From an uncultured Gemmatimonadales bacterium (GTDB lineage Bacteria > Gemmatimonadota > Gemmatimonadetes > Gemmatimonadales > GWC2-71-9), in assembly GCA_963798915.1 (NCBI GenBank), contig CAWCVB010000005.1:25291-89290 (forward strand): 64,000 nt of DNA, given 5' to 3'. Positions 7,877 through 59,144 of the stretch are shown here, in pieces. Numbering within the stretch: position 1 is the stretch's first letter; every line of letters starts with the position of its first letter. The position numbers were made by a program, and so were the translations under genes. The notes beneath the pieces are model-generated. The model saw only the letters and a program-made list of their open reading frames with translations. It was not told the origin of the DNA and made no database searches.

Positions 7877-7960
7877 AATGAGTCGAGGGTCAAGGGTCAA
7901 GGGTCGCGGGTCGGAGCTGCGCCATGGCTCTGTCCGTACAAGGCTCGGGGTGGCTCCGGA

Positions 7961-8200
7961 GCTGTCATCCCGAGCGCAGCGAGGGATCTTGCCCGCCGTG
8001 CTTCGGAGCCGGTTGAGTAGATCCTTCGCTTCGCTCAGCTGTCATCCCGAGCGCAGCGAGGGATCTTGCCCGCCGTGCTTCGGAGCCGGTTGAGTAGATC
8101 CTTCGCTTCGCTCAGCTGTCATCCCGAGCGCAGCGAGGGATCTTGCCCGCCGTGCTTCGGAGCCGGTTGAGTAGATCCTTCGCTTCGCTCAGGATGACAG
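7961..8200. repeat. Three identical 77-bp tandem units of a TGTCATCC...GGATGACA palindromic element
   Basis: Units start at 7961, 8038 and 8115; only the last carries the closing GGATGACA. Confidence 0.95.
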
Positions 8201-8209
8201 ATATTGTCT

Positions 8210-8285
8210 CCGACGACCGACGACCGACGACCGACGACCGCACGACCGCCGACCGACGACCGACGACCGACGACCGACGACCGCC
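8210..8285. repeat. Heptamer array (CGACGAC)n; C-rich partner of the GGTCRAG/GGTCGCG arm at 7880-7913
   Basis: About 10 units read directly. Confidence 0.9.
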
Positions 8286-8350
8286 GAGCCGCCGAGCCAA
8301 CGAGCCGCCGCAACCCTACATTGAACCTTTCCTTCTTCCGGAGACCCGCC

Positions 8351-9574: not shown

Positions 9575-9640
9575 CGGCCCTGCGCGTTCGACCAGACGAC
9601 CATCGCTGCGCAGACAAATCTCCAACACCGAGGGCCCTCC

Positions 9641-10858: not shown

Positions 10859-10977
10859 CGGGAGGGGTCGCTAGTCGTCAGTCGTCGGTCGTCCGTTGAG
10901 TTTCCGAGCCCCTATTCAATGCCGGGCCAGGAGATCCTGCCCGTCCCGCCCGTTCCGTCCGTCCCGCCCGTCCTGTG

Positions 10978-11967: not shown

Positions 11968-11984
11968 GCTGTGACTCCTGCGTT

Positions 11985-12206
11985 CAGTCGTCGGTCGTCG
12001 GTCGTCGGTCGAGGGTCGAGGGTCGTGGGTCGCAGGCTGCGGGTCGTCAGTCGTCAGTCGTCAACAATGAAGTTTGTCATCCCGAGGCCGCGTAGCGGCC
12101 GAAGGATCTACTGGTCCGGGTCCCGACGCTGGTGAGTAGATCCTTCGCTTCGCTCAGGATGACAGATCTCGCGGACCGACGACCGACGACCGACGACCGA
12201 CGACCA
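11985..12206. repeat. Composite repeat: G-rich heptamer arm (11985-12063), 90-bp TGTCATCC...GGATGACA palindrome (12075-12164), C-rich (CCGACGA)n arm (12175-12206)
   Basis: Read directly; the arms are reverse complements. Confidence 0.9.
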
Positions 12207-12211
12207 TCCCG

Positions 12212-17665: not shown

Positions 17666-17807
17666 GATGCAACATAAGATGGGCGGGATGGGCAGGATGG
17701 GCAGGACACAACCGGGTGGCCCGCGAGGCTTCCCGCCATGAGACTCCAGAAAGCTCGTAGCGCGCAGCCCACAATTCTCGATCCTCAGCCCTCCACTATC
17801 ATTCCCC

Positions 17808-20358: not shown

Positions 20359-20631
20359 GCGAAATCTCCAGGATTGAAGGGACGCGGGACAAGATCGTGC
20401 GTCCCTGTCACTACTGAAGTGGTCTCGGGGTCTCCATCCAGCGACGGCTTTGCAACGAACTCTTGACAGGCGACGGTCGAGGAATCCCATCCCAGGGGTG
20501 TCTTGGCGAGCGTCGTCTCGGCGTCTCGCCGTCTCGGCGTCTCATCTTCCAGCCGTCGGTCCGACCCGCCCATCCTGCCCATCCCGCCCGTCCCGCCCTA
20601 TCTTTATGGCCATCTCCCACCCAGGCCCCAC

Positions 20632-23768: not shown

Positions 23769-23872
23769 GACGGCGAGACGGCGAGGCGGCAAGACGGCGA
23801 GGCGGCGAGTTGGCTAGTTGGCTAGTTGGCTAGTCGGCGAGAGGGCGAGTTGGCAAGACGGCAAGTTGGCGG
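23769..23872. repeat. 8-bp tandem array, 13 units (GACGGCGA/GTTGGCTA type); left arm of four-helix cassette 1
   Basis: Counted directly; begins 3 nt after the kinase stop. Confidence 0.92.
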
Positions 23873-23882
23873 CGCTGGTCCA

Positions 23883-24239
23883 TCATGGCGCACTCCGGAT
23901 GCTTCGGTGAAGGCCCCAGAGCAGGCGGCCGACTTCGTCGCACTCATTGAGCAGGCTACCGTCGCTCATTCGGGCATATTCGAGATCGCTCGCCAGCCTG
24001 AGCATGTACTCCACTTCCGCGTGCGACCCCGCAGCGATGTCGAGATAACGACGGAATTCCTTTGACCCTCTCTTGGCCGAGCCCTCGGCCACATTTGCTG
24101 CAATGGAGACCGCGGCGCGCCGAATCTGCGATGTGAGCCCAAATCGCTCGTCAGGAGGCCAGGCCTTCGAGACGGCGTAAATGCGCAGTACCAGCTGATG
24201 CGCCTTCTGCCACACGAGGAGGTCGAGATACGAAGCCAT
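23883..24239 (-). CDS. Four-helix-bundle protein (23S rRNA intervening-sequence protein / Avd-like family)
   Basis: YLDLLVWQKA..ERFGLTSQIRRAAVSIAANVAEG..EFRRYLDIAAGS..E family signature; 118 aa. Confidence 0.93.
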   Translation of the reverse strand: MASYLDLLVWQKAHQLVLRIYAVSKAWPPDERFGLTSQIRRAAVSIAANVAEGSAKRGSKEFRRYLDIAAGSHAEVEYMLRLASDLEYARMSDGSLLNECDEVGRLLWGLHRSIRSAP

Positions 24240-24319
24240 CCCCTAAGATGCCGTCTGCCGCGGTGACCTGGGTATCATTCTCGTGCAGGCCATACCCATG
24301 TCGCGCATTGCCTGGCCGC

Positions 24320-24443
24320 TCGCCGACTTGCCAACTCGCCGTCTTGCCGTCTCGCCGTCTCGCCGTCTCGCCGTCTTGCCGTCTTGCCGTCTCGCCGTCT
24401 CGCCGTCTCGCCGTCTCGCCGTCTCGCCAACTAGCCGCCTAGC
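24320..24443. repeat. 8-bp tandem array, 15 units (TCGCCGTC/TTGCCGTC); right arm of cassette 1, reverse complement of 23769-23872
   Basis: Counted directly. Confidence 0.92.
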
Positions 24444-24730: not shown

Positions 24731-24856
24731 GAGAAAAAGATGGGCAGGATAGGCGGGATGGGCCAGATGGGCGGGGGGCGAGACGGCTGGTTGGCTCAAG
24801 CCGTCATCGCGGCATTCTCACGCGGCTAACCGCCATCACCGGAGAACTGCTTCAAC

Positions 24857-25025
24857 ATAGAGACGCAGAGGACGCGGAGGCACACAGAGGGCTCCTGGTG
24901 CCGAGCTTCTCCGCTTGCCGGGCTCAGTTCACAAAGGTTTTTGTGGGTGCCCGGCTGAGACCCGGATTCTAAGGCCTCTCACGGAGCACTCCGCGTCCTC
25001 TGTGCCTCCGTTCCTCTGTGTTAAA
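24857..25025. repeat. Inverted pair of ~9-bp purine/pyrimidine arrays (GACGCAGAG.../...CTCTGTG) enclosing ~90 bp
   Basis: agagacgcagaggacgcggaggcacacagagg versus ctccgcgtcctctgtgcctccgttcctctgtg. Confidence 0.75.
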
Positions 25026-25119
25026 CCATTGGCGCGACCCGATTGCTTCGTCGGGCCCTTCAGGGCGCACCGCCGTGCCCCCCTGCGGACCCTCCTCGCA
25101 ATGACAGCGCCTGGCGAGC

Positions 25120-25250
25120 TTTCGTCTCGCCAACTCGCCAACTCGCCAACTCGCCAACTCGCCAACTCGCCAACTCGCCAACTCGCCAACTCGCCCTCTC
25201 GCCGTCTTGCCGTCTCGCCGTCTCGCCGTCTCGCCGCTTGCCGCTTGCCG
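25120..25250. repeat. 8-bp tandem array (TCGCCAAC)8 followed by TCGCCGTC units
   Basis: Same family as the cassette 1 arms. Confidence 0.92.
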
Positions 25251-25323: not shown

Positions 25324-26994
25324 ATGGCGAGCGGCGCGGATGACGTGACTGGCCCTGACCTGGCCAGTGGCATTGACGAAGCAGACCTGCCCGACGGCGC
25401 CATGCTGTCGGGAACGGTCGAAGGCGAGGCGGTACTCCTGGTGCGGCGTGGGCCGAACGTCCATGCCGTCGGCGCCACCTGCACCCACTATGGCGGCCCG
25501 CTCGCCGAGGGGCTGGTGGTCGGCGAAACACTGCATTGTCCCTGGCACCACGCCTGCTTCGACCTCGTCACCGGACGCGCGGTCGGCGCGCCGGCGCTCA
25601 ATCCGGTGAGCTGCTGGAAGGTGGAGTTGGCCGGCGGCCGTATCCGCGTCACCGGCCGCCGCAGTGCGCCGGCGCCGCCCCCGCCGCCGACCGGCGCCCC
25701 CGCGCGCATGGTCATCATCGGTGCTGGCGCGGCCGGCAATGCGGCTGCGGAGGAGCTGCGGAACCAGGGTTTTGACGGCGCCATCACGATGATCGGGATG
25801 GAGAACGAGATTCCCTATGACCGTCCCAATCTTTCCAAGGACTATCTCGCCGGCAACGCGCCGGAAGAATGGATTCCGCTCCGCACCAGCGCGTTCTACG
25901 CCGAGCGCAACATCACCCTTCGGCTCGGCGCCGTCGTCGATCGGATCGAACCCGAGAGCAGGCAGCTCGTGTTCCAGGATGGCGAGACCCTGGACTATGA
26001 CCGGCTCCTGCTCGCGACCGGCGCCGAGCCGGTGCGGATGCCGGTACCGACGGAAGAGGGCGCGCCGGTGCACTACCTGCGTTCGCTCGACGACTGTCGC
26101 GCGATCATCCGGGCGGCCGCCAGCGCGACTCGTGTGGTAGTGATTGGCGCCAGCTTTATCGGCCTGGAAGTCGCGGCCGCGCTGAGGATGCGGAAGCTGG
26201 CGGTCGCGGTGGTTGCCCCCGAAGAGGTGCCCTTCGAGAAGGTGCTGGGCGCTGAGCTGGGCCAGTTCCTCCGTGGCGTTCATGAGGGACAGGGCGTGGA
26301 ATTTCACCTTGGCACCAAGGTCGAACGCATCAACCGCATCGGCGTGCACCTGGATAATGGCGCCGATCTCGCGGCGGACCTGATCGTGATCGGTATCGGT
26401 GTGCGGCCGCGCACCGCATTGGCCGAAGCGGCTGGTGCCAGGATGGACAAGGGCGTGGTGGTGGATGAACGGTTGGAGACCAGTCTTCCGGGCATCTACG
26501 CCGCGGGCGACATCGCGCGGGTTCCCGATGCTCGCGCCGACGGGACCATGCGGGTGGAGCACTGGGTGGTGGCGGAACGCCAAGGCCAGGCCGCCGCGCG
26601 CAACATGCTGGGGCTGGGCGCACCGTTTCGCGACGTGCCCTTCTTCTGGACCACGCACTACGACACCACGATCAGCTACATCGGCCACGCCGATGAGTGG
26701 GACGAGGCCGAACTGGATGGCAGCCTGAAAGCGGGCTCAGCGACGATGCGCTATCGCCGCGAAGGGAAGCTCCTGGCAGTCGCGACACTGGGACGGGACA
26801 TGGATGGACTGCGCGCCGAGCAAGAGCTGGAGTCGTGGCTGAAGGCCTCGTCGGCACATGTCACGCGGCTGAAAGCCGCTGCTCGGCAAATGTCGCCTGC
26901 GGCGACACTCCCTGGGGCGGATTTCACAGCAGGTGTCATCCAGAGGCCGCGAAGCGGCCGAAGGATCTACTGGTCCGGGTCCCGACGCTGGTGA
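25324..26994 (+). CDS. Rieske [2Fe-2S] domain fused to FAD/NAD-dependent ferredoxin-reductase-like oxidoreductase
   Basis: CTHYG and CPWHHACF Rieske motifs; GAGAAG, PYDRPNLSK, ATGA, GASFIGLE, AAGD, VPFFWT; last ~43 codons run through a repeat element. Confidence 0.92.
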   Translation: MASGADDVTGPDLASGIDEADLPDGAMLSGTVEGEAVLLVRRGPNVHAVGATCTHYGGPLAEGLVVGETLHCPWHHACFDLVTGRAVGAPALNPVSCWKVELAGGRIRVTGRRSAPAPPPPPTGAPARMVIIGAGAAGNAAAEELRNQGFDGAITMIGMENEIPYDRPNLSKDYLAGNAPEEWIPLRTSAFYAERNITLRLGAVVDRIEPESRQLVFQDGETLDYDRLLLATGAEPVRMPVPTEEGAPVHYLRSLDDCRAIIRAAASATRVVVIGASFIGLEVAAALRMRKLAVAVVAPEEVPFEKVLGAELGQFLRGVHEGQGVEFHLGTKVERINRIGVHLDNGADLAADLIVIGIGVRPRTALAEAAGARMDKGVVVDERLETSLPGIYAAGDIARVPDARADGTMRVEHWVVAERQGQAAARNMLGLGAPFRDVPFFWTTHYDTTISYIGHADEWDEAELDGSLKAGSATMRYRREGKLLAVATLGRDMDGLRAEQELESWLKASSAHVTRLKAAARQMSPAATLPGADFTAGVIQRPRSGRRIYWSGSRRW

Positions 26995-27140
26995 GTAGAT
27001 CCTTCGCTTCGCTCAGGATGACAGATCTCGCACACCGACGACCGACGACCGACAACTGACGACTGACGACCGACGACCGACAACTGACACTGACGACCAC
27101 CTGCCCGCCTCGCCCGTCCTGCCCGCCTTGCCCGTCCTGT
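26864..27140 (+). repeat. Composite MITE-like element (GTCGCCTGCGGCGAC hairpin, 90-bp palindrome 26934-27023, 7-mer and 9-mer tails)
   Basis: Near-identical to 29235-29485 and, inverted, to 35345-35548. Confidence 0.85.
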
Positions 27141-29234: not shown

Positions 29235-29485
29235 ACGCGGCTGTAGCCGCTGCTCAGCCCGTGTCGCCTGCGGCGACAACGCCTGAGGTGGAGCTCACAG
29301 CAGGTGTCATCCAGAGGCCGCGAAGCGGCCGAAGGATCTGCCGGTCCGGGTCCCGACGCTGGTGAGAAGATCCTTCGCTTCGCTCAGGATGACAGATCGG
29401 CGGCGGAGACCGAGACCCGCCGACCGACGACCGACGACCGACGCCGACGACCACCCACCCGCCTTGCCCGTCCTTGCCCGTCCTG
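29235..29485 (+). repeat. Composite MITE-like element, second copy (palindrome 29305-29394)
   Basis: Direct similarity to 26864-27140. Confidence 0.85.
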
Positions 29486-30442: not shown

Positions 30443-30629
30443 GCTGCGCTGTGCGCTGTGCGCTGTGAGCTATGCGCCGTGAGCTGCGAGCTGCGAGCTC
30501 GTGTGAATGAACGGACACCTATGTGAACCAAGGGTCGGAACTGCGATAGCTCCGACCCTTGTTCACATAAGTGATGCCTTCAGCTCACAGCGCGCTCGCA
30601 GCTCGCAGCTAGCTCACAGCGCATAGCTT
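30443..30629. repeat. ~190-bp nested hairpin: heptamer arms around a long inner stem
   Basis: GCTGTGA/GCTGCGA units left, TCACAGC/TCGCAGC right; inner TATGTGAAC-CAAGGGTCGGA...TCCGACCCTTG-TTCACATA. Confidence 0.85.
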
Positions 30630-33057: not shown

Positions 33058-33253
33058 CCGGGTCGCGGGTCGCGGGTCGCGGGTCGCGGGTCGCGGGTCG
33101 CGGGTCGTGGGTCGTGGGTCGTGGGTCGTGGGCCGATGACGGCGAGTGATGAGCTTTGGCCTGCCCATCCTGCCCATCCTGCCCATCCTGCCCATCCCGC
33201 CCATCCCGCCCATCCCGCCCGTCTTGCCCGTCCTGCCCGTCCTGCCCGTCCTG
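33058..33253. repeat. (GGGTCGC/T)~10 heptamer array followed by (CCCATCCYG/CCCGTCCTG)~10 nonamer array
   Basis: Read directly. Confidence 0.92.
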
Positions 33254-35344: not shown

Positions 35345-35548
35345 GGACAGGATGGGCAGGGCAGACAGGACGGGACCGAACGTCGCGCATGGCCCCTGTC
35401 ATCCCGAGCGAGGGATCTGGCGGCCAGCGTCGGGACGGGGGCAGGTAGATCCTTCGGCCGCTGCGCGGCCTCTGGATGACACCTGCCATGAGATCGCCTC
35501 GAGCAGAGTCGCCGCAGGCGACACGAGCCGAGCCGCCGCTTTCGCGGA
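35345..35548 (-). repeat. Composite MITE-like element, inverted third copy, between tolC-like and MFP genes
   Basis: Reverse complement matches 26864-27140; palindrome 35397-35481. Confidence 0.8.
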
Positions 35549-35630: not shown

Positions 35631-36761
35631 ATGAAAGCAGCACACATCGCCCTCGCCGCATTCCTCATTCTTGCCGGCTGCAAGAGCAAGGCAGAGGAGA
35701 CGCCGGCCGCACCACCGCCCGCGCTGCTGGGCCCGGAGAACATCGCCGTGGCGGACACGGCGACCCTGGTGGCGGGCCCGGTAATCTCGGGGACGCTCAC
35801 GCCTGAGCTGGGGGCTACGGTGCGAGCCGAGATTGGCGGATCGCTGGTGGAGGTGGACGCCGACCAGGGGATGACGGTGAAGAAGGGCCAGGTGCTGGGG
35901 CGGATTGACGACACCTCGCTGCGCGATGCATTTCTGAGCGCGCGCGCTGGCCTGCGCACCGCCGAGAGCAACCTCGAGCTGCAGCGCCGCAACCTGGAGC
36001 GCACCCAGCGACTGCATGCAGCGGGCGCGGTGGCGGAGCGCGACCTCGAGACGGCAGCGCTCAGCGTCAAGAACGCCGAAGGCGCCGCAGCCGACGCCCG
36101 GGCGCGCCTCACATCAGCACAGCGCCAGCTCGACAAGACCACCCTGCGTGCTCCGTTCAGCGGCATCGTGAGCGAGGCGGGCGTGAGCGAGGGAGACGTG
36201 GTCACCACCGGCACGGCGCTCTTTTCCGTGGTGGATCCTTCCACCATGCGGCTGGAGGGATCGGTGCCGGTGCAGCAGCTCTCGGAGGTGAAGCAGGACA
36301 TGGCGGTGCGGTTCTCGGTGAGCGGATACCCCGATCGCGTGTTCGAGGGGCGGATCGAACGGGTCAACCCGGTGGTCGATCCCACGACCCGCCAGGTGCG
36401 GGTGATCGTGACGGTGCCGAATGCGTCGCGCTCGCTGGTGGGTGGCCTCTATGCCGAGGGCCGTGTGGCGACGGAAATGCGCCACGCCGTGGTGGTCCCG
36501 ACGGCCGCCGTGAACCGGCGGGGCATCCGCCCTGAAGTGGTGCGCCTCAAGCGCGGCCGGGTCGAGAAGGTGCGGGTGGGGCTGGGGATCGAGGATGCGG
36601 TGAACGAGCGTGCCGAGGTGACCTCGGGCCTGGCAGCCGGCGACACGGTGCTCATCGGCGCGGCGCAGGGGCTGACACCGGGCACCGTGGCGCGGGTGCG
36701 GGCGCCTCGCGAGACTGAGACCGAGGCGGCGACGCCGGGTGATACCAATGTTCATCAGTGA
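35631..36761 (+). CDS. RND efflux periplasmic adaptor (MFP) lipoprotein
   Basis: Lipobox LAGC; VKKGQVL, LRAPFSGIV, EGRIERVNPVVDPTTR. Confidence 0.93.
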   Translation: MKAAHIALAAFLILAGCKSKAEETPAAPPPALLGPENIAVADTATLVAGPVISGTLTPELGATVRAEIGGSLVEVDADQGMTVKKGQVLGRIDDTSLRDAFLSARAGLRTAESNLELQRRNLERTQRLHAAGAVAERDLETAALSVKNAEGAAADARARLTSAQRQLDKTTLRAPFSGIVSEAGVSEGDVVTTGTALFSVVDPSTMRLEGSVPVQQLSEVKQDMAVRFSVSGYPDRVFEGRIERVNPVVDPTTRQVRVIVTVPNASRSLVGGLYAEGRVATEMRHAVVVPTAAVNRRGIRPEVVRLKRGRVEKVRVGLGIEDAVNERAEVTSGLAAGDTVLIGAAQGLTPGTVARVRAPRETETEAATPGDTNVHQ

Positions 36762-39700
36762 TTTTGCGATCAGGCGGCCCATCGTCACCATCGTGACGAT
36801 GCTGGCGCTGGTTGTCTTTGGCCTGTTCTCGCTGCTGCGCCTCCAGACCGATGAGTTTCCCGAGGTCGCGCCGCCCTACGTCTCCGTCAGCCTGGTCTAT
36901 CCGGGCGGATCGCCCGAAGGGGTGGAGAACGAAGTACTGGATCCAGTGGAAGAAGCCATCTCCTCCATCAGCGGCGTGAAGAAGATCATGGGAACGGCCG
37001 AGGACAACTACGGCCTGATCCTCATCGAGTTCGTGTTCGACAAGCCGCTGCCCGAGGCGACCCAGGACATCCGCGACGCCATCTCGGAGATCCGCTCCGA
37101 CCTGCCGGACGAGCTGGAAGAGCCCATCATCAAGAAGATGAACGACACCGACCAGCCGATTGTCTCGCTGGCGCTGACGTTCATCGTCGCTGTCGCCGGC
37201 GGAACTCACGCGGCTGGCCGATCCTGGCATCACCCGTGAATTACGCTCGATTCCGGGCGTGGCCGAGGTGAATGTGGTGGGCGAACTGGAGCGTGAACTC
37301 ACGGTCGAGTTGCGGCCGGACGCACTCCAGGCCGCGGGCGTGAGCGTGGCGCAGGTGGTCCAGGCACTCAACCAGCAGAACCTCGCTGCGCCGGTGGGAC
37401 GGGTGACCGGCAACCTGCAGGAACGCTCCATCCGGCTGGTGGGGCGGTTGCAGGGGCCAGCCGAGTTCGAGCAGCTGGTGGTGAGCGAGCGGGATGGGAA
37501 CATCATCCGGCTGGGACAGGTCGCGACGGTGCACGACGGGACCGAGGAACAGCGCAGCCTGGCGCTGTTCAACCAGAAGGAAGCGGTCGGCATCGACATC
37601 AAGAAGTCGCGCGGCTACAGCACCACCGACGTGAGCTCCCGGATCCTGACGCGGGTTCGCCAGCTCGAGTCCACGCTGCCGGAGGACGCCAAGCTCGAGG
37701 TGGTGGTGGACGCGGGCACGCGAGTCCACGCGGCGGTGCGCAACGTGCAGGAGGCGCTGGTCGAAGGCGCCATCCTCACGGTGTTCGTGGTCTTCCTGTT
37801 TCTGAACTCCTGGCGCAGTACCGTCATCACCGGTCTCGCCCTGCCCGTCTCGGTGCTGGCGTCGTTCGTGGCGGTGTGGGCCTTCGGGTTCACGCTCAAC
37901 ACCATGTCGCTGCTGGGACTCTCGCTCGCCATCGGGATCCTGATCGACGATGCCATCGTGGTGCGCGAGAACATCGTGCGCCACGTGGAGATGGGAAAGG
38001 ATCACTACACGGCGGCGCGTGAGGGCACCGACGAGATCGGGCTCGCGGTGGCGGCGACCACCTTCTCGATCCTCGCCGTCTTCGCGCCGATCGCTTTCAT
38101 GTCGGGTGTCGGCGGGCAGTGGTTCAAGCCCTTCGCGCTGACCATCGCCTGTTCGGTGCTGGTCTCGCTCTTTGTCTCCTTCTCGCTCGACCCGATGCTC
38201 TCGGCCTACTGGCCTGACCCTCAGCTCGAAGAGGGCGAGAAGAACTGGATTACCCGGAAGCTCGACCGCTTCAATGACTGGTTCGGTCGGCTGGCGGACG
38301 GGTACCGGCATGTGATCGGATGGGCGCTCGACCATCGCCTGGCCGTGGTGGTCGTGGCGCTGGGCGCCTTCTTCGGCTCATTCACCCTGCCCATGAAGGG
38401 CCTGAGCGGCCTGGGCGCCGTGGCGGTCGGCATCGTGGTCATGGTCTGGGGCCTGACGCATTTCCACGACAAGCGCTGGCTGCGGCTCCTGTTCATCCCG
38501 CTGGGCCTGCTGGTAGCTGGGGGGATCTACTCGCGGATGGGCGAGTGGGGGAAGGTGGGCGTCGGTTTCTTCCCGGAAGAAGATCGGTCGGAGTTCTACA
38601 TCAAGATCGAGACGCCGCCCGGGTCGAATCTCGAGTACACCCGGCTCAAGGCCGCCGAAGCGGTGCGACTGGTCGCAGCGCACCCCGAAGTGCGCTACAC
38701 CTACACCACGCTCGGCGGCCAGGGCTCGGGCGCGGTGGATGTGGGACAGATCTACGTGCGGCTCACGCCGCGCGGGGACCGTGACATCAGCGCCGAGGAG
38801 TTTGCGGCGGTGGTGCGCGGCGAGATCGCCCGCCTTACCGGCTCCACCATGGCAGTGTTTACCAGTGGGTTCGGCGGCGGACGAAAACAGCTCGCGCTGC
38901 AGATCACCGGGCCCGACATCGCGTCCATCAACAAGGTGGCCGACTCCGCGCTGGCGATCGTCAAGGCCACACCCAATGCCGTGGATGCGGCGTTGTCCAG
39001 CAAGGGACAGAAGCCCGAATTCAACGTCGAGCTCCATCGGGGGCTGGCCGGTGCGCTGGGCGTGACCGCGGGCCAGGTGGCGCAGTCACTGCGGCCGGCA
39101 TTCGCCGGCATCGACGCGGGCGACTGGGTGGACCCCAGCGGTGAAACGCGTGACGTCGAGATCCGCTTTGCGCCCGAGTCACGGCAGAGCGCCGCCGACC
39201 TGCGGCAGGTGCCGCTGGTGATCCCGGGCCCGGGCGGCGGCGCGCCGGTCACGGTGCCGCTGGGTCAGGTGGCGACCATCCAGCCGGTCATGGGGCCGGC
39301 GATCATCAATCACCTCAATCGTGACCTCGTGGTCAACGTGGAATGGAACGTCTCGGGCCGGTCCACCAACGAGGTGATGACCGACGTACAGACCCAGGTG
39401 GACAAGATTCCCCTGCCGGCAGGCGTGGCCATGTCGGTGGGCGGCGACCAGGAGCAGCAGAACGAAGTGTTCGGCAGCATCTTCTTTGCCCTTGGCACGG
39501 CGCTTCTGCTCATGTACCTGATCCTCGTGGTCCAGTTCGGGTCGTTCCTTGCGCCGCTCGCCATTCTCATGTCGCTGCCGCTTTCGCTGATCGGGGTCAT
39601 GCTGGCGCTCGCCTTCAGCGGGATGACCATCAACATCATGAGCCTCATCGGAGTCATCCTGCTCGCGGGTATCGTAGCGAAGAACGCCATCCTGCTGATT

Positions 39701-40042
39701 GATTTTGCCAAGTGGTCGCGGGAACGGGACGGCGTGCCGCTGCGCGAGGCGTTGATCGAAGCCGGCGCCATCCGCCTGCGTCCGATCCTGATGACCACCT
39801 TCGCGCTGATCGCCGGCATGATCCCGGTGGCCATGGGGATCGGTGAGGGCGCCCAGTTCCGTGCGCCGCTCGGCATTGCCGTGATCGGCGGTGTCATCAC
39901 CTCCACCTTGCTCACTTTGCTCGTCATCCCAACGGTATACGAGATCCTCGAAGGGTGGAAAGAGGGACTCACCGGGTTGATCCGGCGCAAGCGGGGTGCG
40001 GACGCGCAGCCGGTGGAGGTGGACGCGTTGGCGGTGGATTAG
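36748..40042 (+). CDS. RND efflux permease (AcrB/MdtB family), split by one extra base at 37180-37181
   Basis: MFISDFAIRRP, GILIDDAIVVRENI, KNAILLIDF, RLRPILMTT; removing one T joins the ORFs (LTSSSLSPAELTRLADPG). Confidence 0.92.
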
Positions 40043-40284
40043 GCGAGATGGGCAGGATGGGCAGGATGGGCGAGATGGGCACGCAGTTGCGGGTCGAGGA
40101 TCGAGGTTGTCGAGGCTCGAGCGTCCTGAGCCTGCCCTCTCGTCATTCCTGCGAAAGCCCGGTTTCCCCCGGGGTGACGAGCGGGCGAGCTTCGGCCCGC
40201 CCATCCCGCCCGCTGAAACTTTCCGGCTTGGCGGTTCGTGATGCCAGGTGCAGCGAACTACCCGCGCCCCTTCGTGGACTTCAG

Positions 40285-43020: not shown

Positions 43021-43095
43021 GTCATTGCGAGGGCGCGGAGCGTCGGCGCCTTGGGCGACGCAGGCGTCGCCCCTACGGCGCCTCCTCGCAATGAC
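43021..43095. repeat. GTCATTGCGAGG...CCTCGCAATGAC palindrome enclosing a GTAG-type REP (43053-43076)
   Basis: 12-bp terminal inverted repeat; inner reverse-strand GTAGGGGCGACGCCTGCGTCGCCC. Confidence 0.8.
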
Positions 43096-43154
43096 AACGC
43101 TTGGCAGCTTCGGCCTGCCCATCCCGCCCATCCCGCCCATCCCGGCCATCCCGC

Positions 43155-44700: not shown

Positions 44701-44785
44701 TGCCTAGCCGTCTCGCCGTCTCGCCGTCTCGCCGTCTCGCGGTCTCGCCGTCCAGCCGTCTAGCCGTCTCGCCGTCCAGCCGTCT
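44701..44785. repeat. 8-bp tandem array (TCGCCGTC/CAGCCGTC), ~10 units
   Basis: Read directly. Confidence 0.9.
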
Positions 44786-48194: not shown

Positions 48195-48850
48195 TCCAGG
48201 GGGCCGCTGAAGCGGGCAAGTTCAGCGCCTTCGTGGTGACCTCGCTCTGGGTGCACGGGCCGTGGTCGCCCCTGCTGCCGGCCGCCTACGAGCCGGTGCT
48301 CATGCTCTACGGCAAGTGGTACCCGCCCTGGCTCGTCGCGGTCACCGGTGCCACGCTGAGCTGCATCGTCGAGTGGATCAACTACCGGGTCTACGACTGG
48401 ATCTCCGACCTCAAGCGGCTGGAAAACCTCAAGCACAAGGCCACCAGCGGCCGCTTTGTGCGGCTGTTCCAGAAGCAGCCCTTTCTGGTGGTCTGGATCT
48501 TTGCCTGGTCTCCGCTGCCCGACTGGGCCGCGCGGATCATGAGTGTGATCGCGGGCTACTCGATCTGGCGCTATGTGCTGGCGTTCTGGCTGGGAAGGCT
48601 GCCCAAGTTTCTCTTTCTCGCCTGGCTGGGCCAGAAGCTCCCACTCACGGCGCTGCAGCTCACCATCATCGCCGTGGCGGCAGTGATCGTGGGGTATGGG
48701 TGGGGATGGTGGAGGCGACGGGATGGGCGAGATGGGCAGGATGGGCGGATGGGCGGATGGGCAGGATGGGCGAGATGGGCAGGATGGGCGAGATGGGCAG
48801 GATGGGCGAGATGGGCAGGATGGACGGGGTGGGCAGGTCTCACGTTCTGA
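48191..48850 (+). CDS. VTT/DedA-like (SNARE-associated) membrane protein; C-terminus encoded by a repeat array
   Basis: GTGA overlap; SPLPDW..Y..AFWLGRLPKF; tail GWARWAGW comes from the nonamer array. Confidence 0.65.
   Translation: MIQGAAEAGKFSAFVVTSLWVHGPWSPLLPAAYEPVLMLYGKWYPPWLVAVTGATLSCIVEWINYRVYDWISDLKRLENLKHKATSGRFVRLFQKQPFLVVWIFAWSPLPDWAARIMSVIAGYSIWRYVLAFWLGRLPKFLFLAWLGQKLPLTALQLTIIAVAAVIVGYGWGWWRRRDGRDGQDGRMGGWAGWARWAGWARWAGWARWAGWTGWAGLTF
48722..48837. repeat. 9-bp tandem array, ~13 units (GATGGGCAG/GATGGGCGA); left arm of four-helix cassette 2
   Basis: Counted directly; two units are 8 bp. Confidence 0.92.
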
Positions 48851-49193
48851 GTGACCGATACAGCAGCCATGTGACTCGACCTGCGGCATCGCGGGCTGCT
48901 TCAATTGCTTGCCAGTCCGCCTCTCTGAGGAAGCCCAGATCTCGGGCAAGTTCCAGCTGGTAGCTGACCTCAGAGAGCGATCCGAGTGAGATGTCGAGAA
49001 ACCGGCGGAATTCCGCCTTTCCGCGCTTCGCGGATCCTTCGGCTATGTTCGTGGGCGCAGAGGCTGCTGCACGGCGTATTTGTGCCGTCAGCCCGTAGCG
49101 TTCGGTGGCGGGCCAAATCTCGGTCGCCCGATAGATCGCCAGCGCCAGTTCGTGACAGCGCTGCCACGCGATCAAGTTCTTGTATCGTTTCAT
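48840..49193 (-). CDS. Four-helix-bundle protein (23S rRNA IVS / Avd-like family), second paralog
   Basis: YKNLIAWQRC..ERYGLTAQIRRAAASAPTNIAEG..EFRRFLDISLGSLSE; 117 aa. Confidence 0.93.
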   Translation of the reverse strand: MKRYKNLIAWQRCHELALAIYRATEIWPATERYGLTAQIRRAAASAPTNIAEGSAKRGKAEFRRFLDISLGSLSEVSYQLELARDLGFLREADWQAIEAARDAAGRVTWLLYRSLRT

Positions 49194-49256
49194 GCTGCCA
49201 AGATCGCGGGTCGTTCGCTCCTGCCGAGCATCGAAATGCTTCACCTCGTACCAATC

Positions 49257-49346
49257 CTGCCCATCCCGCCCATCTCGCCCATCTCGCCCATCCCGCCCAT
49301 CCTGCCCATCCTGCCCATCCCGCCCATCCCGCCCATCTCGCCCATC
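49257..49346. repeat. 9-bp tandem array, 10 units (YYGCCCATC); right arm of cassette 2, reverse complement of 48722-48837
   Basis: Counted directly; ends 3 nt from the thrE stop. Confidence 0.92.
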
Positions 49347-49349
49347 CTC

Positions 49350-50582: not shown

Positions 50583-50618
50583 AAGTCGGGAGGACGGGAA
50601 GACGGGAAGACGGGAGGA
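50583..50618. repeat. 8-bp array (AAGTCGGG/AAGACGGG); left arm around the Uma2 gene
   Basis: Reverse complement of 51421-51455. Confidence 0.8.
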
Positions 50619-50844
50619 AAGGGCGAAGCCCGTAGGGGCGGGTCTTCGACCCGCCCCACCGCCGGCACACGTCCCGGTGCCGACATGCATCCCGATGCCG
50701 CCCCCCAGAGGAAGAGGCGAGGGCCCGATCATCGCGTCATTGCGCGCCGTCATGCAGCAATGCGGTCACGCAACTGCCGAGCCGGGCCGCATCATGCGGC
50801 ATGTCCGCTTGCCATTTCCCGACCGCCGAGCGTACCGTATGGGC

Positions 50845-51396
50845 ATGCCCCTCACGTCGCATCACTGGACTCGCGCCGAGGTACTGGCACTGCCGGACGA
50901 CGGCACGCGCCATGAGCTGGTGGATGGCGAGCTGCTGGCGAGTCCGACACCCCGGCCTCCTCATCAGGTGGCCGTCATGAAGCTGACCGGTGCACTGGCG
51001 CCGTACGTCGCCGCGCACGATCTCGGGATCCTCTGCAGTGTGCCGGCCGATCTGGACCTCGGGTCCGGGCAGATTGTCCAGCCTGACCTGTTTGTGGCCA
51101 GCGTGGACCCCGGCCACCCGCCCGCCAACTGGGAAGACTGGGGTGTGCCAATCCTGGTGGTGGAGGTGCTGTCGCCCGCCACGGCGCGCTATGATCGCCT
51201 CACTAAACGGCGCTGCTACCAGCGCTCGGGCGTCTGCACGTACTGGATCGTGGACTTGGATGCTCGGCTGGTCGAGGTGTGGGCGCCACATGCCATGTCA
51301 CCCGTGATCGAGGACACCCGGCTTGCCTGGCAGCCCGATGCGACGGTGGAACCTCTGGTGATTGATCTTGACCGCCTGTTCCGGACGGGGTGGTAG
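50845..51396 (+). CDS. Uma2-family putative endonuclease (PD-(D/E)XK fold)
   Basis: WT...LALPDDG.RHELVDGEL..SP.P...HQ, VQPDL, LVVEVLSP.T..YD..K..Y...GV..YWIVD; start 50845 or 50839. Confidence 0.92.
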   Translation: MPLTSHHWTRAEVLALPDDGTRHELVDGELLASPTPRPPHQVAVMKLTGALAPYVAAHDLGILCSVPADLDLGSGQIVQPDLFVASVDPGHPPANWEDWGVPILVVEVLSPATARYDRLTKRRCYQRSGVCTYWIVDLDARLVEVWAPHAMSPVIEDTRLAWQPDATVEPLVIDLDRLFRTGW

Positions 51397-51417
51397 TCGG
51401 CTCGACAGCCCATGCCC

Positions 51418-53698
51418 CTACTTCCCGTCCACCCGACTTCCCGTCTTCCCGACTTCAATCACAAACGCATACTCCTCCGCCACCTCCCGCAGCATGTCGT
51501 AGCGCCCTGACGCGCCGCTGTGGCCCGCGCCCATGTGCACCCGGAGCAGCACCGGATTCCGGCTGGTGTTCATGGTGCGAAGCTTGGCGACCCACTTGGC
51601 CGGCTCCCAGTATCCCACGCGCGGATCGTTGAGGCCCGCCGTGACCAGCAACGCCGGATACCCCTTCCGCTCCACGTTGTCGTAGGGCGAGTAGCTGCGG
51701 ATGTAGTCGAAATAGTCCGCCTCGTTGGGGTTGCCCCACTCCTCGTATTCCATCACCGTCAGCGGGATGCTCTCGTCCAGCATGGTGGTGAGCACATCCA
51801 CGAACGGCACCTCGGCGACGGCGCCGGCAAAGAGGTCGGGCCGCTGGTTCAGCACCGCGCCCACCAGCAGCCCGCCGGCGCTGCCGCCCCACATCACCAG
51901 CCGGTCCGGGCTGGTCCAGCCGGTGGCGATCAGGTGCTCCGCCGACGCGATGAAATCGCTGAACGTATTCCGCTTCTCCAGGAGCTTGCCGTGGCGATAC
52001 CACGGGCGCCCCAGCTCCTCGCCGCCGCGCACGTGCGCAATCGCCACCACGATGCCCCGGTCCAGCAGACTCACCGCGTTGGAGGAAAAGACCGGTTCGA
52101 AGTTGACACCGTAGGCGCCGTAGCCGCGGAGGAGGAGGGGAGAGGAGGTCGACGGTCCACGGTCAACAGTCGACCGTTGACCGTTGACTGTTGACCCCTG
52201 CTCCCCATCCGCCCATCCCGCCCCTCCTGCCCATCCCGCCCCTCTCTCCACACCAGCGACACGGGTATCCGCGCGCCGTCCGCTGCAATGGCAAAATCCC
52301 GTGCGGTCCGGTACTGGCTCGCGTCGTAGCCAAGCACCGGCTGGCGCTTCCGCTCGTGCCAGGTCCGCGTCGCCATGTCATAGTCAATGACGGATGGCGG
52401 CGTGACCAGCGAGGTGTACACCAGCCGGAGCGTGGCCGAGTCGAATTCCGGGTTGGCGCCCGGCCGGACCGAGAACACCTCTTCCGGAAACTCGATCCGG
52501 TGATCCTCGCCGGTGCGGAGATTACGGATTGTCACCCGGGGTGTCGCGTCGGCCCGCTCCCAGATGACGAGATAGTCCCGGAAGGCGTCGACGGCGTCGA
52601 GTTTCACGTCATGATCGAAGATGGGTTCCAGGTCTTCGGTCTTCGGTCTTCGGTCGTCAGAGGGGTCGTCGGTCGTCGGTCGTCGGTCTTCCACTGCTCC
52701 CGACGACTGAAGACCGAAGACAGACGACCCGTCCAGCAGCATCTCCACCAGCTGAAAATTCTCCGCGCCCTCGTTGGTCACGATGAAAAGCCGCTCGTCG
52801 TGATGCTCCACCAGGTATTCGATCTGGGGCCGGCGCGGGATCACCACCTGGGGCGGCTCCAACGGGCGCTCGGCGTCGATGAGCCACACTTCGCTGGACG
52901 AGTGGCTGGCCAGATAGAGCCGGATGAAGCGGCGGCTGCGGGTGGTGTCGAGGCCGACGACGAAGCGGGCGTCCAGCTCGTCATAGATGATCGGATCTGA
53001 GTCAACGGTCGACGGTCTACGGTCTACGCTCGACTGTTGGCCGTCGACTGTTGACTGTTGACTGTTGACCGTCGACTGTCGACCATCACCAGCGCCCAGC
53101 TCATGCCTCATCACCCGCCACGGCCTCAGCGTCTCGTCCAGCGTGACATAGAACAGGTACCGCCCGTCCGCACTCCACTCGGCGCCGGCGGCAATACTCT
53201 GGATCGGGTCACCCAGCAGTTCGCCGGTGGCGATGTTCCTGACCGCCAGGTCGTATTTCTCGTTGCCATCGGTGTCGGTGGAATACGCCAGCAGGGTGTG
53301 GTCGGGCGAGGGCTCGAAGGCGCCCAGCCGGAAATAGGGCTGGTCCCGGGCCAGCGCGTTCTGGTCCAGCAGGATTTCTTCCGGAGCATCCAGCGAGCCG
53401 CGCTTCCGGCAGAGGATGGCGTACTGTTTCCCCTCCTCGGTGCGGCTGTAATAGAGCCACCCGTCCCTCAGCTCGGGGACGCTGAGGTCAGTCTCCTGGA
53501 TCCGCCCCAGCATCTCGGTGTACAGCTCACCGCGCAGGTCACCGCTGGCGGCAAACCAGGCATCGGTATGGGCATTCTCGGCCTCGAGATAGGCCAGGAC
53601 GTCGGGATCCTCACGATCGCGGAGCCAGAACCAGTCGTCGGTGCGGACGGCACCGTTGTGGGAGAGGGTGACGGGACGGCGCTGGGCATGGGGGGCAT
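51418..53698 (-). CDS. ptrB: Oligopeptidase B (S9A) with three repeat insertions and two 1-nt apparent deletions
   Basis: N-terminal RTDDWFWLRD..LEAEN, LRGYGAYG, HVRGGEELG, GGSAGG (Ser), NDPRV (Asp), AGH (His); frame restored by one C in the C6 run at 53690-53695 and one G near 52209. Confidence 0.9.
51421..51455. repeat. 8-bp array (CTTCCCGT/CTTCCCGA); right arm around Uma2, encoding the ptrB C-terminus
   Basis: Read directly. Confidence 0.8.
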
Positions 53699-53700
53699 GG

Positions 53701-53792
53701 GGTTAGTTGGCGAGTTGGCTGGTTGGCGAGTTGGCGAGTTGGTTAGTTGGCTAATTGGCGACCGTCGACCGTCGACCGTTGACCCTCGACCC
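53701..53792. repeat. G-rich 8-mer array (AGTTGGCG) followed by C-rich heptamers (ACCGTCG)
   Basis: Read directly, immediately upstream of ptrB. Confidence 0.85.
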
Positions 53793-55073: not shown

Positions 55074-55079
55074 TACGTT

Positions 55080-55850: not shown

Positions 55851-55935
55851 ACGCCGATTGACGGTTGCCTTGGCACTCGGCTTCGCCCTGCTGGGCCTCC
55901 TGCCGCAGGCGCTTTGGCGCACCCTGTCTCATAGC
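55851..55935 (+). pseudogene. Remnant paralog of the 5' end of the membrane gene at 57335
   Basis: [25 protein letters not shown] versus [25 protein letters not shown]; similarity stops abruptly. Confidence 0.7.
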
Positions 55936-56005
55936 GGTGGGCTCGCAAGCGAGCCGGTGATCGCGGCGCTGGTCCCGCGTCTATCACCCACCGCCAGCCT
56001 TTTCG

Positions 56006-57172
56006 TCACGCGGACCCTGATGGAGGGCCGACCGACTGCCGGATCCAGCATCCGAAGAGCGGATCTTCGAGCCGGAGTCGGGTGGTTCCGAGATGGCTTT
56101 GTCGCCAGCAGGTACGTTTTCCAATGAGTCCGTCTATCGCGCGCTGCATGCTTGCCGCGGTCATGTTGAACTGCTTCAGCGTCCCTTTGCTGAAAAGGCC
56201 ATCGCCACCTTCAAGAACGGCGGCCTGAAGCGCGCGACGCTGCGGGGCGGTCAATCCCAGCCAGATCTGGCTATACACGGGGTCGAGCCGGGTTGCTGAG
56301 CGGGCCTGGAGGGCATGAACCTGGGCTACGGAGAGCGTGGCATTCGGGCCGGCGTCGCGCAAGTCGTTCCAGCATTCGTGCGCCAGAAGCTGGACATTGT
56401 ATGGTACATCGTCTGCTTCATCGAGGATGGCGTCAAGCGCGCGCTCCGGGACCTGGGCGCCAAGCGGCGCGAAGCCCGCCGCGAGATGTAAATGAAATGC
56501 TGGCCGGGGGATCTCCTCGAGCATACGTACCAGGCCCAGCCGGTAGAATGGGCGGGCCGAGTCACTTGTCATCGCGGTGAGCAGGCGGGTATCGGAGCCA
56601 GCGAACAGGTATCCCACATGGCGGTGTTCCTGCACGGCGGCGCGAAGCTGACGCTCGGCATCCGCGCCATCCGCCACGAGATGCTGAATCTCGTCCAGGA
56701 CCAGGCCGACCGGCCGATCGCTCCTGGCTGCCAGGGATTCCAGGCCGTTCAGCACATCCACCAGCTGAGGGATGACCCCGTGTCCGGCGCGGCTGCCGAG
56801 GCTTACGCTCCAGGTCGGGTCCAGTGGACTGTAGGTGACTTGTGGCCGTACATGCTTGAAGATTTCTGCCAGGCGCCTGGCAACCCGCTCGACAGGGCCG
56901 GTGATGGCCTTCGCGGCATCGGCAACGATGGCGCTGAGAAGAGCCTCGAGATCGGCATAGGCCTCGACGTTGTGGCGGAGTACGATGGCTCCAGCATCGC
57001 GTGCCTTGTGTGACGCGACGTTATGGACCGAGCTCTTGCCGTACCGTCGGGGACCGATCAGAAATTCCTTGGCGCCCGATGTCAGCGTCTGGCCGGCCTC
57101 GGCGACCTCGGCCTCTCGGTCAGCGAGTTCCCCGGGGCCAAGTTCCCGGCCATACTCAAAGGGGTTGTCCAT
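56006..57172 (-). CDS. Archaeal-type/STAND-like P-loop ATPase with probable C-terminal winged helix
   Basis: NPFEYG..LADRE, GPRRYGKSS Walker A, LVLDEIQ Walker B, FAGS, PYNVQLL, EDPLF..W. Confidence 0.85.
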   Translation of the reverse strand: MDNPFEYGRELGPGELADREAEVAEAGQTLTSGAKEFLIGPRRYGKSSVHNVASHKARDAGAIVLRHNVEAYADLEALLSAIVADAAKAITGPVERVARRLAEIFKHVRPQVTYSPLDPTWSVSLGSRAGHGVIPQLVDVLNGLESLAARSDRPVGLVLDEIQHLVADGADAERQLRAAVQEHRHVGYLFAGSDTRLLTAMTSDSARPFYRLGLVRMLEEIPRPAFHLHLAAGFAPLGAQVPERALDAILDEADDVPYNVQLLAHECWNDLRDAGPNATLSVAQVHALQARSATRLDPVYSQIWLGLTAPQRRALQAAVLEGGDGLFSKGTLKQFNMTAASMQRAIDGLIGKRTCWRQSHLGTTRLRLEDPLFGCWIRQSVGPPSGSA

Positions 57173-57188
57173 GTGCCCCAAACCTTTA

Positions 57189-57214
57189 TGCGTTATACAA
57201 AATTGTATTATGCA
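57189..57214. promoter_or_regulatory. AT-rich inverted repeat upstream of the ATPase; candidate operator
   Basis: ATACAA-AA-TTGTAT core (57195-57208) extending to 10/12 matching arms. Confidence 0.5.
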
Positions 57215-57334
57215 AATCAGTATAATGCAAGCGGCTGCTGGGGCGGACCCGATCGCTTCGCCCTGCGGGCTCGCCATGACGCACCGAAACCCGTGACCCG
57301 TGACTCGTAACCCACGACCCGCGACCCGCGACCC

Positions 57335-59144
57335 TTGACCCTCGACTCTCGACGCTTGACCATCAGTCTGGCGCTGCTCTTCGCGCTCCTGGGCCTCCTC
57401 CCCCAGGCACTTTCCCGCACCCTGCCCGATATCGCTTTCCCGCTGTGGGCGGCGGACCGGATGCAGCACGGCGCCCGGCTCTACGTGGACATTCTCGAGA
57501 TCAACCCGCCGCTGTTCATCTGGCTGGATCTGCCGCTGGCCTGGCTGTCGCGGGTCACGGGTCTCGAGTCCATAACGTGGTATCGAGTCGCTGTCAGCCT
57601 TCTGCTGTTCGCGTCTCTTGCCGGTTCGTGGTGGGCGCTCAGGAAAGGCCTGGACGACGAACCGCCGGCCTATCGCCGGCTGCTCTGGCTTGTCGCCGCG
57701 TTTGCGTTGCTGCTCCTGCCCCGGCTCGACTGGGGCGAGCGGGAACATCTCTCCCTTGCCCTGACGCTCCCCTACATCCTGTTGGGCATTGCTCGGGCAC
57801 GGGGGAAGGCCGTGTCCACGCGCGGCGCAGTGCTGGCTGGCCTCGCGGCGGGCATGGGGATCGCGCTGAAACCGCATTTTGTGCTGGTGTGGCTCGGGAG
57901 GGAGCTGGGAATATGGTCGTCAGTCGTCGGTCGTCAGTCGTCGGAGGCGGCAGCTGGTTCTGGATCGCGACGACAGATGACCGATGACCGACGACCCTGG
58001 AGCGGCGCCCGGCTCCTCATCAACGCCGAGGCACTCATCGTCCCTCTCCTCTGCATCGGCTACCTGCTGGCCGTCCAGCTCATTCACCCCGAATACTTCC
58101 ATCTCCTGCGCCAGCTGGGATGGGCCTACCAGCGATTCCTGCGCAACAGCATGCTGATCACGCTCTTGCTGGGCGATGGGTCGGCCATCGTGCTCGGCGC
58201 GCTCATCGTGGCCGTGGCGCTTCGGAAGCTCCCCAAGCATGCTTCCGTGTGGCGGGTGCTGACCGGCTCGATGCTGGGCTATTTTGTGGCCGCGGTGATT
58301 CAGGCCAAGGGATGGCGCTACCATTTCTATCCGGCGCTGGGGCTCGCCATGCTGCTTTTCGCCGCGATGGCGTGGGACGCGTGGCGGCCAGCTCCGAGTC
58401 GTCTGATGCGAGTCTTTGCTGCCATTCCGCCGGCGGCGCTGGCCACCGCGGTGGCGGTGAGCGCCGTGCTGGCCGTGCGGCAGACGGCGCGGCCGCTCGA
58501 TCCGCGCTATGACCCCGATCCCAGTCTTGGCGCGTTGATCCCGATGGTGCAGGAGCGTGCCGCTGGCCGGCCGGTCTTCATCATCAGCCCCAACATGGCG
58601 AGCGGGTTTCCGCTCACCAACTACGCCGGCAATATCTGGCCCTCGCGGCTCTCCAACATGTGGCCGGTGGTGGTGGCCTATGACAGCGCCATCTGGCAGC
58701 CGGCGCCGGTGACGGCTACGTCGGCCCGGGGCGGCAACCGGGCTCGAGCGGCTGGGGCGGCAGATTGCGGTCGAGGATTTTCTCGCCTCCCGTCCTCCGC
58801 TGGTGCTCTCGCTGGTCGCGGTGCACCAGCGGGGCTGGGGAATGCAGCGGCTGGACCTGCTGCAATGGCTCAAGCAGGACGCCAGCTTCCGCGCCGCGTG
58901 GACGGCCTACGACTCCCTCGGCCGGCGCGGCAACTACCTCGTCTGGGCCAGGCGAGACGATGCGCGGGCCGCGGCGCCGCTGGCCGCGGGACAGGCGAAT
59001 ATCTCCGCTGCCAGCGCGGCGCCATCGGAAGTGCGGGTGAACCTGGCGGCGGTCGCGGCGGGCGGTCTCTTCCTGCTGCTGCTGGCGGTCGTCATGCGGC
59101 GGCAGCGGACGGAACCAGTCCCGGAGGAAACCCAATGCGGCTGA
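57335..59144 (+). CDS. Polytopic membrane protein (GT-C-like), split by one extra G at 58714-58715, with an in-frame heptamer hairpin
   Basis: [30 protein letters not shown]; the ORF-track fusion to the GT2 disappears if one G is removed, giving stop 59144; start uncertain. Confidence 0.7.

Follow-up and report, generated by a model that had tools for sequence, protein, structure and literature searches.

The closest described counterpart of the repeats treated here was reported by Rehm et al. in 2015 (PMC4692102) and comprises polar heptamers, GGGAATC in Xanthomonas and GGGGAYT in Nostoc. These heptamers are intergenic, and the start of their G-rich strand lies at most about 50 bp from the open reading frame (ORF) on its 5' side, in whichever direction that ORF is read. 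The pairs are always convergent and the copy number changes fast; that article gives no function, no mechanism and no link to a cassette. The present report concerns a 64-kb stretch of DNA (the window; 64,000 nucleotides of contig CAWCVB010000005.1, assembly GCA_963798915.1) from an uncultured soil bacterium of the Gemmatimonadales, whose spacers carry tandem arrays with units of 7 to 9 bases. Arrays beside the left-hand gene of a spacer are G-rich on the forward strand and arrays beside the right-hand gene are C-rich, and many of the arrays are the two arms of hairpin-shaped insertion cassettes. The polarity rule itself is not new, having been found in Xanthomonas and Nostoc with no proven cause (Rehm et al. 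2015). New here are the arrays flanking palindromic cores, the PF05635 genes between the arms, the in-frame inserts in a peptidase gene and the phylum-specific order of the arms.

The likeness to the heptamers of Rehm et al. lies in the intergenic tandem units, in the G-rich strand that points away from the nearest ORF and in the convergent pairs. The differences are that three periods (7, 8 and 9) and dozens of units obey one rule here, and that arrays are found around defined cargo and, in frame, within genes. Most heptamers of this genome (GGTCGNN) are without G-tracts, so quadruplex formation cannot be the common factor. In Coxiella burnetii's 23S rRNA intervening sequence (IVS), as its report describes it (PMC4990558), an S23p gene lies within a stem of 28-bp terminal inverted repeats and variable-number tandem heptamers are present inside the element. 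A PF05635/S23p gene in the loop of an inverted-repeat stem was found here in 8 of 8 cases; compared with that description, however, the present cassettes lie between or inside protein-coding genes and not in rRNA, and their arms are long tandem arrays. An IVS is located in helix 25 or 45 of 23S rRNA and is excised by RNase III, whereas both PF05635 copies of the window lie between protein-coding genes, and in this genome derivatives that lack cargo or hold a core are far more numerous than those that carry a gene. The repetitive extragenic palindromic (REP) doublets forming hairpins (REPINs), mobilised by REP-associated tyrosine transposases (RAYTs), replicate as a hairpin-forming inverted doublet, with singlets as remnants and new copies inserted into or beside old ones, according to Bertels and Rainey 2011 (PMC3116915). 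The inverted hairpin-forming doublet is common to both systems, but the arms here are tandem arrays instead of REPs of 20-30 nt. A literature search on tandem repeats of Gemmatimonadetes, on heptameric repeats and on inverted repeats around PF05635 found arm order or cassettes only in Rehm et al. and in the Coxiella IVS paper.

Tandem Repeats Finder (TRF) returned 105 rows for the window, mainly of periods 7, 8 and 9. The first-pass annotation of this DNA had proposed the G-left, C-right order at 29 coordinates, and all 29 have the claimed composition, 27 of them being arrays with at least three copies. On the G side, TRF gives an array of period 7-9 and three or more copies at 12 of 13 coordinates; 11 of these have a GC skew of +0.21 to +0.70 and the weakest, at 10873, has just +0.08, while 35345 is a degenerate G-rich stretch (skew +0.33) and no array. 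On the C side, 15 of 16 are arrays with skew -0.22 to -0.70, and 30583 is a low-copy repeat of period 11/18 with skew -0.21. No intergenic exception to the order was seen in the window, and an Rfam scan of the window gave no matches.

The whole assembly comprises 17 contigs and 3.31 Mb, with 66% G+C and 84.8% completeness. It contains 723 merged TRF arrays of period 7-9 with at least three copies, although copy numbers of arrays in metagenome assemblies may be imprecise, and 2871 genes called by a purpose-built codon-usage model, whose calls are crude and whose start codons are uncertain. Periods 7-9 dominate in the TRF output, and 524 of the 723 arrays are less than 50% covered by called genes. 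Of 519 arrays outside called genes, 476 have an absolute skew of at least 0.1; these are distributed as 185 G-rich on the left, 185 C-rich on the right, 61 C-rich on the left and 45 G-rich on the right (Fisher odds ratio 12.5, p = 1.5e-35). The genome-wide repeat search recommended earlier thus gave an orientation far from 50:50. The association between side and skew is significant in the four gene configurations ++, +-, -+ and -- (p from 1e-6 to 7e-14), which upholds the claimed independence of gene direction, and it is present in nearly every unit family analysed separately. Spacers with one G-rich and one C-rich array have them as G-then-C in 73 cases and as C-then-G in none. Among neighbouring arrays at most 400 bp apart, counted free of gene calls, 122 pairs are G-then-C and 10 are C-then-G, the latter with long gaps (median 257 bp) that leave enough space for a gene.

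The rule had been said to be valid at gene starts and ends alike, and this was found. Within 10 bp of a gene end 203 arrays follow it and 21 do not, the corresponding numbers for stop codons being 152 and 14, and upstream of start codons about 90% follow it out to 60 bp. The stop codon is frequently within the first repeat unit. Single G-rich arrays are closer to the left gene in 80 of 104 cases and single C-rich arrays closer to the right gene in 62 of 86. The side is best described by G minus C (area under the curve, AUC, 0.898, compared with 0.863 for purine/pyrimidine, 0.853 for keto/amino and 0.58 for A minus T). The zero-skew family GGTCAAC has a fixed orientation as well (9/11), which speaks for the cassette reading below. 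Distinct units number 83, 52 and 57 for periods 7, 8 and 9. The most frequent ones, GGTCGTC, GGTCGAC and GCTGAAG, have no GGG run, the median copy number is 4.4-5.1, and the quadruplex-capable G-tracts and the preference for four units that mark the heptamers of Rehm et al. are not seen.

Ordinary slippage together with replication skew, or an artefact of assembly or ORF calling, deserves almost no weight as the origin of this pattern. Slippage predicts unit copy numbers that are unstable between species, as they are; the gene-free count of 122 to 10 tells against it, and so does the alternation of G and C arrays within about 100 bp in one spacer, with balanced counts on each contig, which excludes the replichore as a cause. 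Among the 199 arrays covered by ORFs, those at ORF 3' ends are G-rich in 40 cases, C-rich in 7 and neutral in 9, and since these arrays follow the rule, ORF calling is not its source. Likewise, in five other assemblies of the genus 11 adjacent pairs are G-then-C and none is C-then-G. The statement that strand skews cannot give the mirror symmetry was therefore correct for replication; outward transcription from both flanking genes could give it. Spacer DNA outside the arrays has a weak skew of about +-0.05, and this background was rejected as the seed of the pattern as too weak.

The anatomy of a subset of the pairs is that of a cassette. Arms share the same period in 72 of the 122 G-then-C pairs, where 48 are expected for independent arms, and in 37 pairs the units are reverse complements with at most one mismatch. 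The cognate pairs tested, two inserts in a peptidase gene of the window, fold as DNA hairpins with z = -3.96 and -5.88, none of 200 shuffles being as good. Beside arrays counted as single, a hidden complementary stretch of at least 12 nt was identified on the inward side in 62 of 262 cases and on the outward side in 16. The ends of the cassettes are inverted, and no duplication is visible at the in-gene sites. Centres of at least 40 bp belong in 39 of 66 cases to three palindromic core families with the ends GTCAT...ATGAC. There are 65 core loci in the genome; 55 have an array at the flank, and the reverse placement, C-rich to the left or G-rich to the right, occurs at none. Flanking arrays are mainly 9-mers at core A (25 of 41) and mainly 7-mers at core B (18 of 26).

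The only genes identified between arms are PF05635, Uma2 and GIY-YIG genes. All eight PF05635 genes of the genome, two of them in the window, lie between arms of cognate units, with a left array that is G-rich in six and neutral in two and a right array that is C-rich. The period of these arms is 7, 8 or 9 depending on the locus, and three near-identical gene copies have one arm family in common. The arm families (GGTCGTC, GGTCGAC/GGTCAAC, GGGTCGT, GACGGCGA and GGGCGGGAT) are among the commonest in the genome. Genes for a Uma2 nuclease (window 50839-51396) and a GIY-YIG protein likewise lie between cognate arms. A PF05635 protein of the window matches PDB 2GSC, which is XCC0516 of Xanthomonas campestris (E = 6e-21). 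In the supplementary table of Rehm et al. a GGGAATC array is placed at the start of XCC0516 (PMC4692102).

The S9 prolyl-oligopeptidase gene of the window contains three G-then-C inserts. That at 52130-52245 shifts the frame and those at 52630-52735 and 53000-53085 are in frame. At all three sites the congener G004 also has inserts, made of different units; in G009 only one of the sites is occupied, and G007 lacks inserts altogether. In each of the genomes the two arms of an insert match one another, so the arms arrive or are rewritten together, at the DNA level.

These sites, being places where a transcription signal is unwanted, bear on the explanation in which each array is polar by itself. 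Outward transcription, by read-through at 3' ends and by divergent promoter transcription at 5' ends, would let arrays with a G-rich non-template strand expand or persist through R-loops, or selection would act on expression signals with G-rich RNA on exit from a gene and C-rich RNA on entry, and hairpin pairs would be a by-product. Such an origin is possible, although we hold it to be rather unlikely. It agrees with the validity of the rule for singles and for heterologous pairs, with its greater strength at gene ends and, somewhat, in convergent than in divergent spacers, and most of the Xanthomonas repeats are transcribed according to Rehm et al. (PMC4692102). However, outward transcription cannot produce G-then-C pairs inside genes, the arms at 8 of 8 PF05635 genes are wrongly oriented relative to the ends of those genes themselves, and A slightly exceeds T on the outward strand (AUC 0.58), the opposite of a deamination signature. 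A version based on Rho would fail for Nostoc, which is not known to have Rho. The order of the arms in Acidobacteriota, given below, also speaks against outward transcription.

The relatives sampled are not independent, and their phylum labels are those of the sequence records. In 72.7 kb from five congeners, a biased sample of stretches syntenic with the window, 44 arrays were identified, among them the adjacent pairs counted above, and the preferred units are species-specific. In 400 kb from six further genera of the family and order, just 13 arrays and not a single pair were counted, which places the spread of the arrays at the level of the genus. Since 26 of 31 relatives carry PF05635 genes, the presence of these genes was rejected as what separates array-rich from array-poor genomes. 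Elsewhere in the order, 20 PF05635 loci from 11 genomes were sampled; an inverted repeat (E <= 0.01) flanks 18 of them, mostly in the form of 7-8-mer arrays, and the arms are G-first in 17 of the 18, L049 being the exception. The arms travel with the PF05635 gene even where arrays are rare.

A scan of the genomes of further species gave 80 PF05635 loci, of which 65 have an inverted repeat, 7 have none and 8 have too little flank; an inverted repeat thus flanks 65 of the 72 loci with enough flank. The order is G-first at 43 of 43 loci in Gemmatimonadota. Acidobacteriota contributed 20 loci: 17 have (AGCAYTC)n arms in C-first order, and of the remaining three, two are G-first and one is neutral. 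In three Acidobacteriota genomes 9 of 9 close AGCAYTC pairs are in the reversed order, with centres down to 22-41 bp. The order of the arms is lineage-specific, which speaks against chemistry alone, be it quadruplex formation or telomerase-like synthesis, as the cause. At L076, labelled Actinomycetota, the PF05635 cassette has GGCGGACC arms identical to those of the Gemmatimonadota contig L072, from a similarly named sample series; this identity could reflect a binning error or a recent transfer.

The reading we favour, with a confidence that does not quite reach even, is that the arrays are arms of hairpin cassettes and that the order of the arms is an inherited architecture. In the gene-carrying form a PF05635 gene (S23p of 23S rRNA intervening sequences, Avd-like) lies between inverted arms of 7-9-base tandem repeats, and versions without cargo or with a palindromic core would have spread through spacers and into some genes of this genus. 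The anatomy, the cargo at the centre, the insertion into a gene and the lineage-specific order are demonstrated; the descent of single and mismatched arms from such cassettes, and the manner in which these move, are inferred. The order would be a heritable trait of the lineage of the element, G-first in Gemmatimonadota and reversed in Acidobacteriota. A unit with inverted arms is identical on both strands, so the mirror symmetry and the independence from gene direction and replichore follow geometrically. The order persists because slippage, copying from arm to arm, inversion of the whole element and recombination between arrays cannot flip it. The earlier suggestion of nested inverted-arm insertions is supported, for a subset of the arrays, by the cognate hairpins, by cargo confined to the centre and by the S9 inserts, and its nesting has to be qualified: arrays of the same polarity do abut (22 GG and 43 CC neighbours at most 400 bp apart), but no G-G-C-C nest was identified.

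Several observations weigh against this reading. The chief difficulty is that the majority of arrays stand alone or in mismatched pairs and are not visibly decayed, yet obey the rule equally. The claim that the rule extends to arms of different families is correct, and 50 of the 122 pairs have arms of different period, a share too large for nesting and subsequent loss to produce, and just 37 are cognate. Three heterologous pairs fold like shuffled sequences (z = -1.05, +0.15 and +0.03). About 200 single arrays have no detectable partner, and singles are as uniform and long as paired arms (lag identity 0.857 vs 0.871, p = 0.43); their interpretation as decayed remnants is not supported, and in this they differ from REP singlets, which are reported to be more decayed than doublets. 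No complete G-G-C-C nest occurs among 348 spacers. The start of 166 arrays lies no further than 10 bp from a stop codon, and for this adjacency the cassettes need extra assumptions, namely spread up to a functional boundary or a preference of target. No conserved loop was found in the cassettes. Comparable elements are miniature inverted-repeat transposable elements and the palindromic elements of Rickettsia, small palindromic non-coding insertions tolerated in frame in surface loops of proteins. The present cassettes have inverted ends, and no target-site duplication, full-length conserved copy or transposase partner was found here.

A fragile centre, for instance a hairpin tip cut by SbcCD, could also generate such pairs, through inward 3' re-synthesis in which slippage favours G-rich nascent strands, with foreign DNA captured at the break. 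This broad form of the directional-addition idea is improbable. Its geometry agrees with the rule, unrelated kinds of cargo are confined to the centre, and congeners have unlike arrays at the same sites of a gene, which looks like repeated rewriting. The inner fifth of the arrays is slightly the most uniform (0.897 vs 0.876), but not significantly (p = 0.13), so that no age gradient is established along the arrays; moreover, their borders are sharp on both sides, with no degeneracy beyond them. Unit families recur at many loci, which indicates copying and not local birth, in many spacers the arrays abut genes rather than each other, and the reversed order in Acidobacteriota is again contrary. 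The presence of Ku in the genome would agree with such repair but is uninformative either way.

The narrower form, in which a telomerase-like reverse transcriptase adds RNA-templated G-rich repeats to both ends of a break, had been offered by the first-pass annotation and is very improbable. Head-to-head telomere fusions would yield the required G-then-C order, and PF05635 proteins resemble Avd, the partner of the reverse transcriptase of diversity-generating retroelements. Against this, no RVT_1 match was obtained in the genome at its 84.8% completeness, the distinct units of each period are dozens and not one or few, no terminal gradient is present along the arrays, and the Acidobacteriota order is reversed.

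The features of the window are collected in Table 1.

Table 1. Repeat arrays, cores and enclosed genes of the window (window coordinates; a dot marks features without strand)
Position	Strand	Feature	Remark
7882..7913	.	G-rich array GTCGAGG x4.6, left arm of spacer	skew +0.45
7960..8202	.	Palindromic core of family B (GTCATCC..GGATGAC) between arms, 3 tandem copies of 77 bp	
8210..8303	.	C-rich array CCGACGA x11, right arm of spacer	skew -0.24
10873..10973	.	Heterologous pair, 7-mer AGTCGTC (skew +0.08) then 9-mer TCCCGCCCG (skew -0.48)	fold z +0.15, no better than shuffles
11987..12205	.	Cognate cassette: (GTCGTCG)n, family-B core 12063-12173, (GACCGAC)n	
17678..17706	.	Lone G-rich 9-mer array (GATGGGCAG)	
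20514..20598	.	Two C-rich arrays (CGTCTCGG; CCCGCCCAT) adjoining the right-hand gene	
23769..24428	-	Cassette: (GACGGCGA)x11.8, PF05635 four-helix-bundle gene 23883-24239 (-), (GCCGTCTC)x14.4	
24737..25235	.	G arrays 24737-24775 and 24862-24890, family-C core 25041-25121, C array 25126-25235 (CTCGCCAA)	
26934..27139	.	Family-B core 26934-27031, then two C arrays (ACCGACG; CCTGCCCGT)	
29305..29484	.	Family-B core 29305-29398, then C arrays (GACCGAC; CCCGTCCTTG)	
30445..30620	.	G array (TGCGCTG) and low-copy C-rich partner (GCTCACAGCGC)	
33059..33253	.	Heterologous pair, 7-mer (CGGGTCG)x10.6 and 9-mer (CCTGCCCAT)x10.4, gap 27 bp	no hairpin signal, z -1.05
35345..35481	.	Degenerate G-rich 9-mer-like stretch, then family-B core 35396-35481	
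40047..40081	.	Lone G-rich 9-mer array, starting 5 bp past a stop codon	
43041..43155	.	Family-C core 43041-43105, then C array (GCCCATCCC)	
44707..44785	.	Lone C-rich 8-mer array (GCCGTCTC), upstream of a + strand gene	
48719..49347	-	Cassette: (CGGGATGGG)x13, second PF05635 gene ~48843-49196 (-), (ATCCCGCCC)x10.4	
50583..51456	+	8-mer arms (AAGACGGG / CCCGACTT) enclosing Uma2 nuclease gene 50839-51396	
51418..53690	-	S9 prolyl-oligopeptidase gene interrupted by three repeat inserts of G-then-C order	
53684..53791	.	G, G, C: GGGCATGGG, (AGTTGGCG)x7, (CGACCGT)x4.7; heterologous	no hairpin signal, z +0.03
57289..57361	.	C-rich 7-mer array (ACCCGTG) immediately ahead of a + strand gene	
57916..57996	.	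Weakly skewed pair, GTCGTCA then CGACGAC, within a called glycosyltransferase ORF	

The triplication of the family-B core comprises 3.0 copies of 77 bp with 100% identity at window 7960-8192. Immediately to the left of the first array-bearing spacer (window 1-7211) lies a UvrD/PD-(D/E)XK helicase-nuclease gene, after which come two genes for WYL-domain regulators (PafC-like). An AcrB-type efflux pump gene at 36748-40042 is split in two ORFs (36748-37239 and 37259-40042), by a frameshift or an assembly error. Uma2 nuclease genes are also found in clusters of three, at C1:153330-155431 and C3:112158-114124, and in the first of these an identical GGACGCG array lies ahead of each gene.

Across the genome the density of arrays is uneven. 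Contig C6 (500 kb) has 20 skewed arrays, compared with 122 in C5 (517 kb) and 109 in C1 (334 kb), and C12 and C16 have none; the array-poor C6 may represent another replicon, may have been acquired recently or may have been binned wrongly. At C17:46796-47425 a single G array precedes eight C arrays of the same unit, AGATGGG, set at regular gaps of 38-42 bp, a higher-order tandem repeat of arm plus spacer. A stand-alone Y1 transposase (RAYT-like) gene at C2:384373-384810 has its own hairpin repeats on both sides (CGCGGCTTTCAGCCGCG type) and no 7-9-mer arrays. It is not linked to the arrays, its flanking repeats being unrelated to them.

A more specific and quite unlikely proposal, made by analogy with the RAYTs of REPINs, is that a hitherto unrecognised class of selfish element may have the PF05635 (S23p/Avd-like) pentamer as its trans-acting factor. 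Each paralogue would recognise its own arm unit directionally and drive the copying of cargo-less arm pairs to spacers and genes, the order of the arms being the footprint of this recognition. If so, a genome's array families would be expected to reflect which PF05635 paralogues it has.

Short tandem repeats with such polarity are common at the ends of bacterial genes, and what causes them has gone unexplained since 2015. The system described here links such repeats with the very large protein family PF05635/S23p and with small palindromic elements. In practice, short-read assemblies break at such arrays, and ORF calls are displaced by them at stop codons. Should the cassette reading be right, a selfish hairpin element would occupy about one quarter of the spacers of this genus, and its proteins would tolerate the in-frame insertion of that element.

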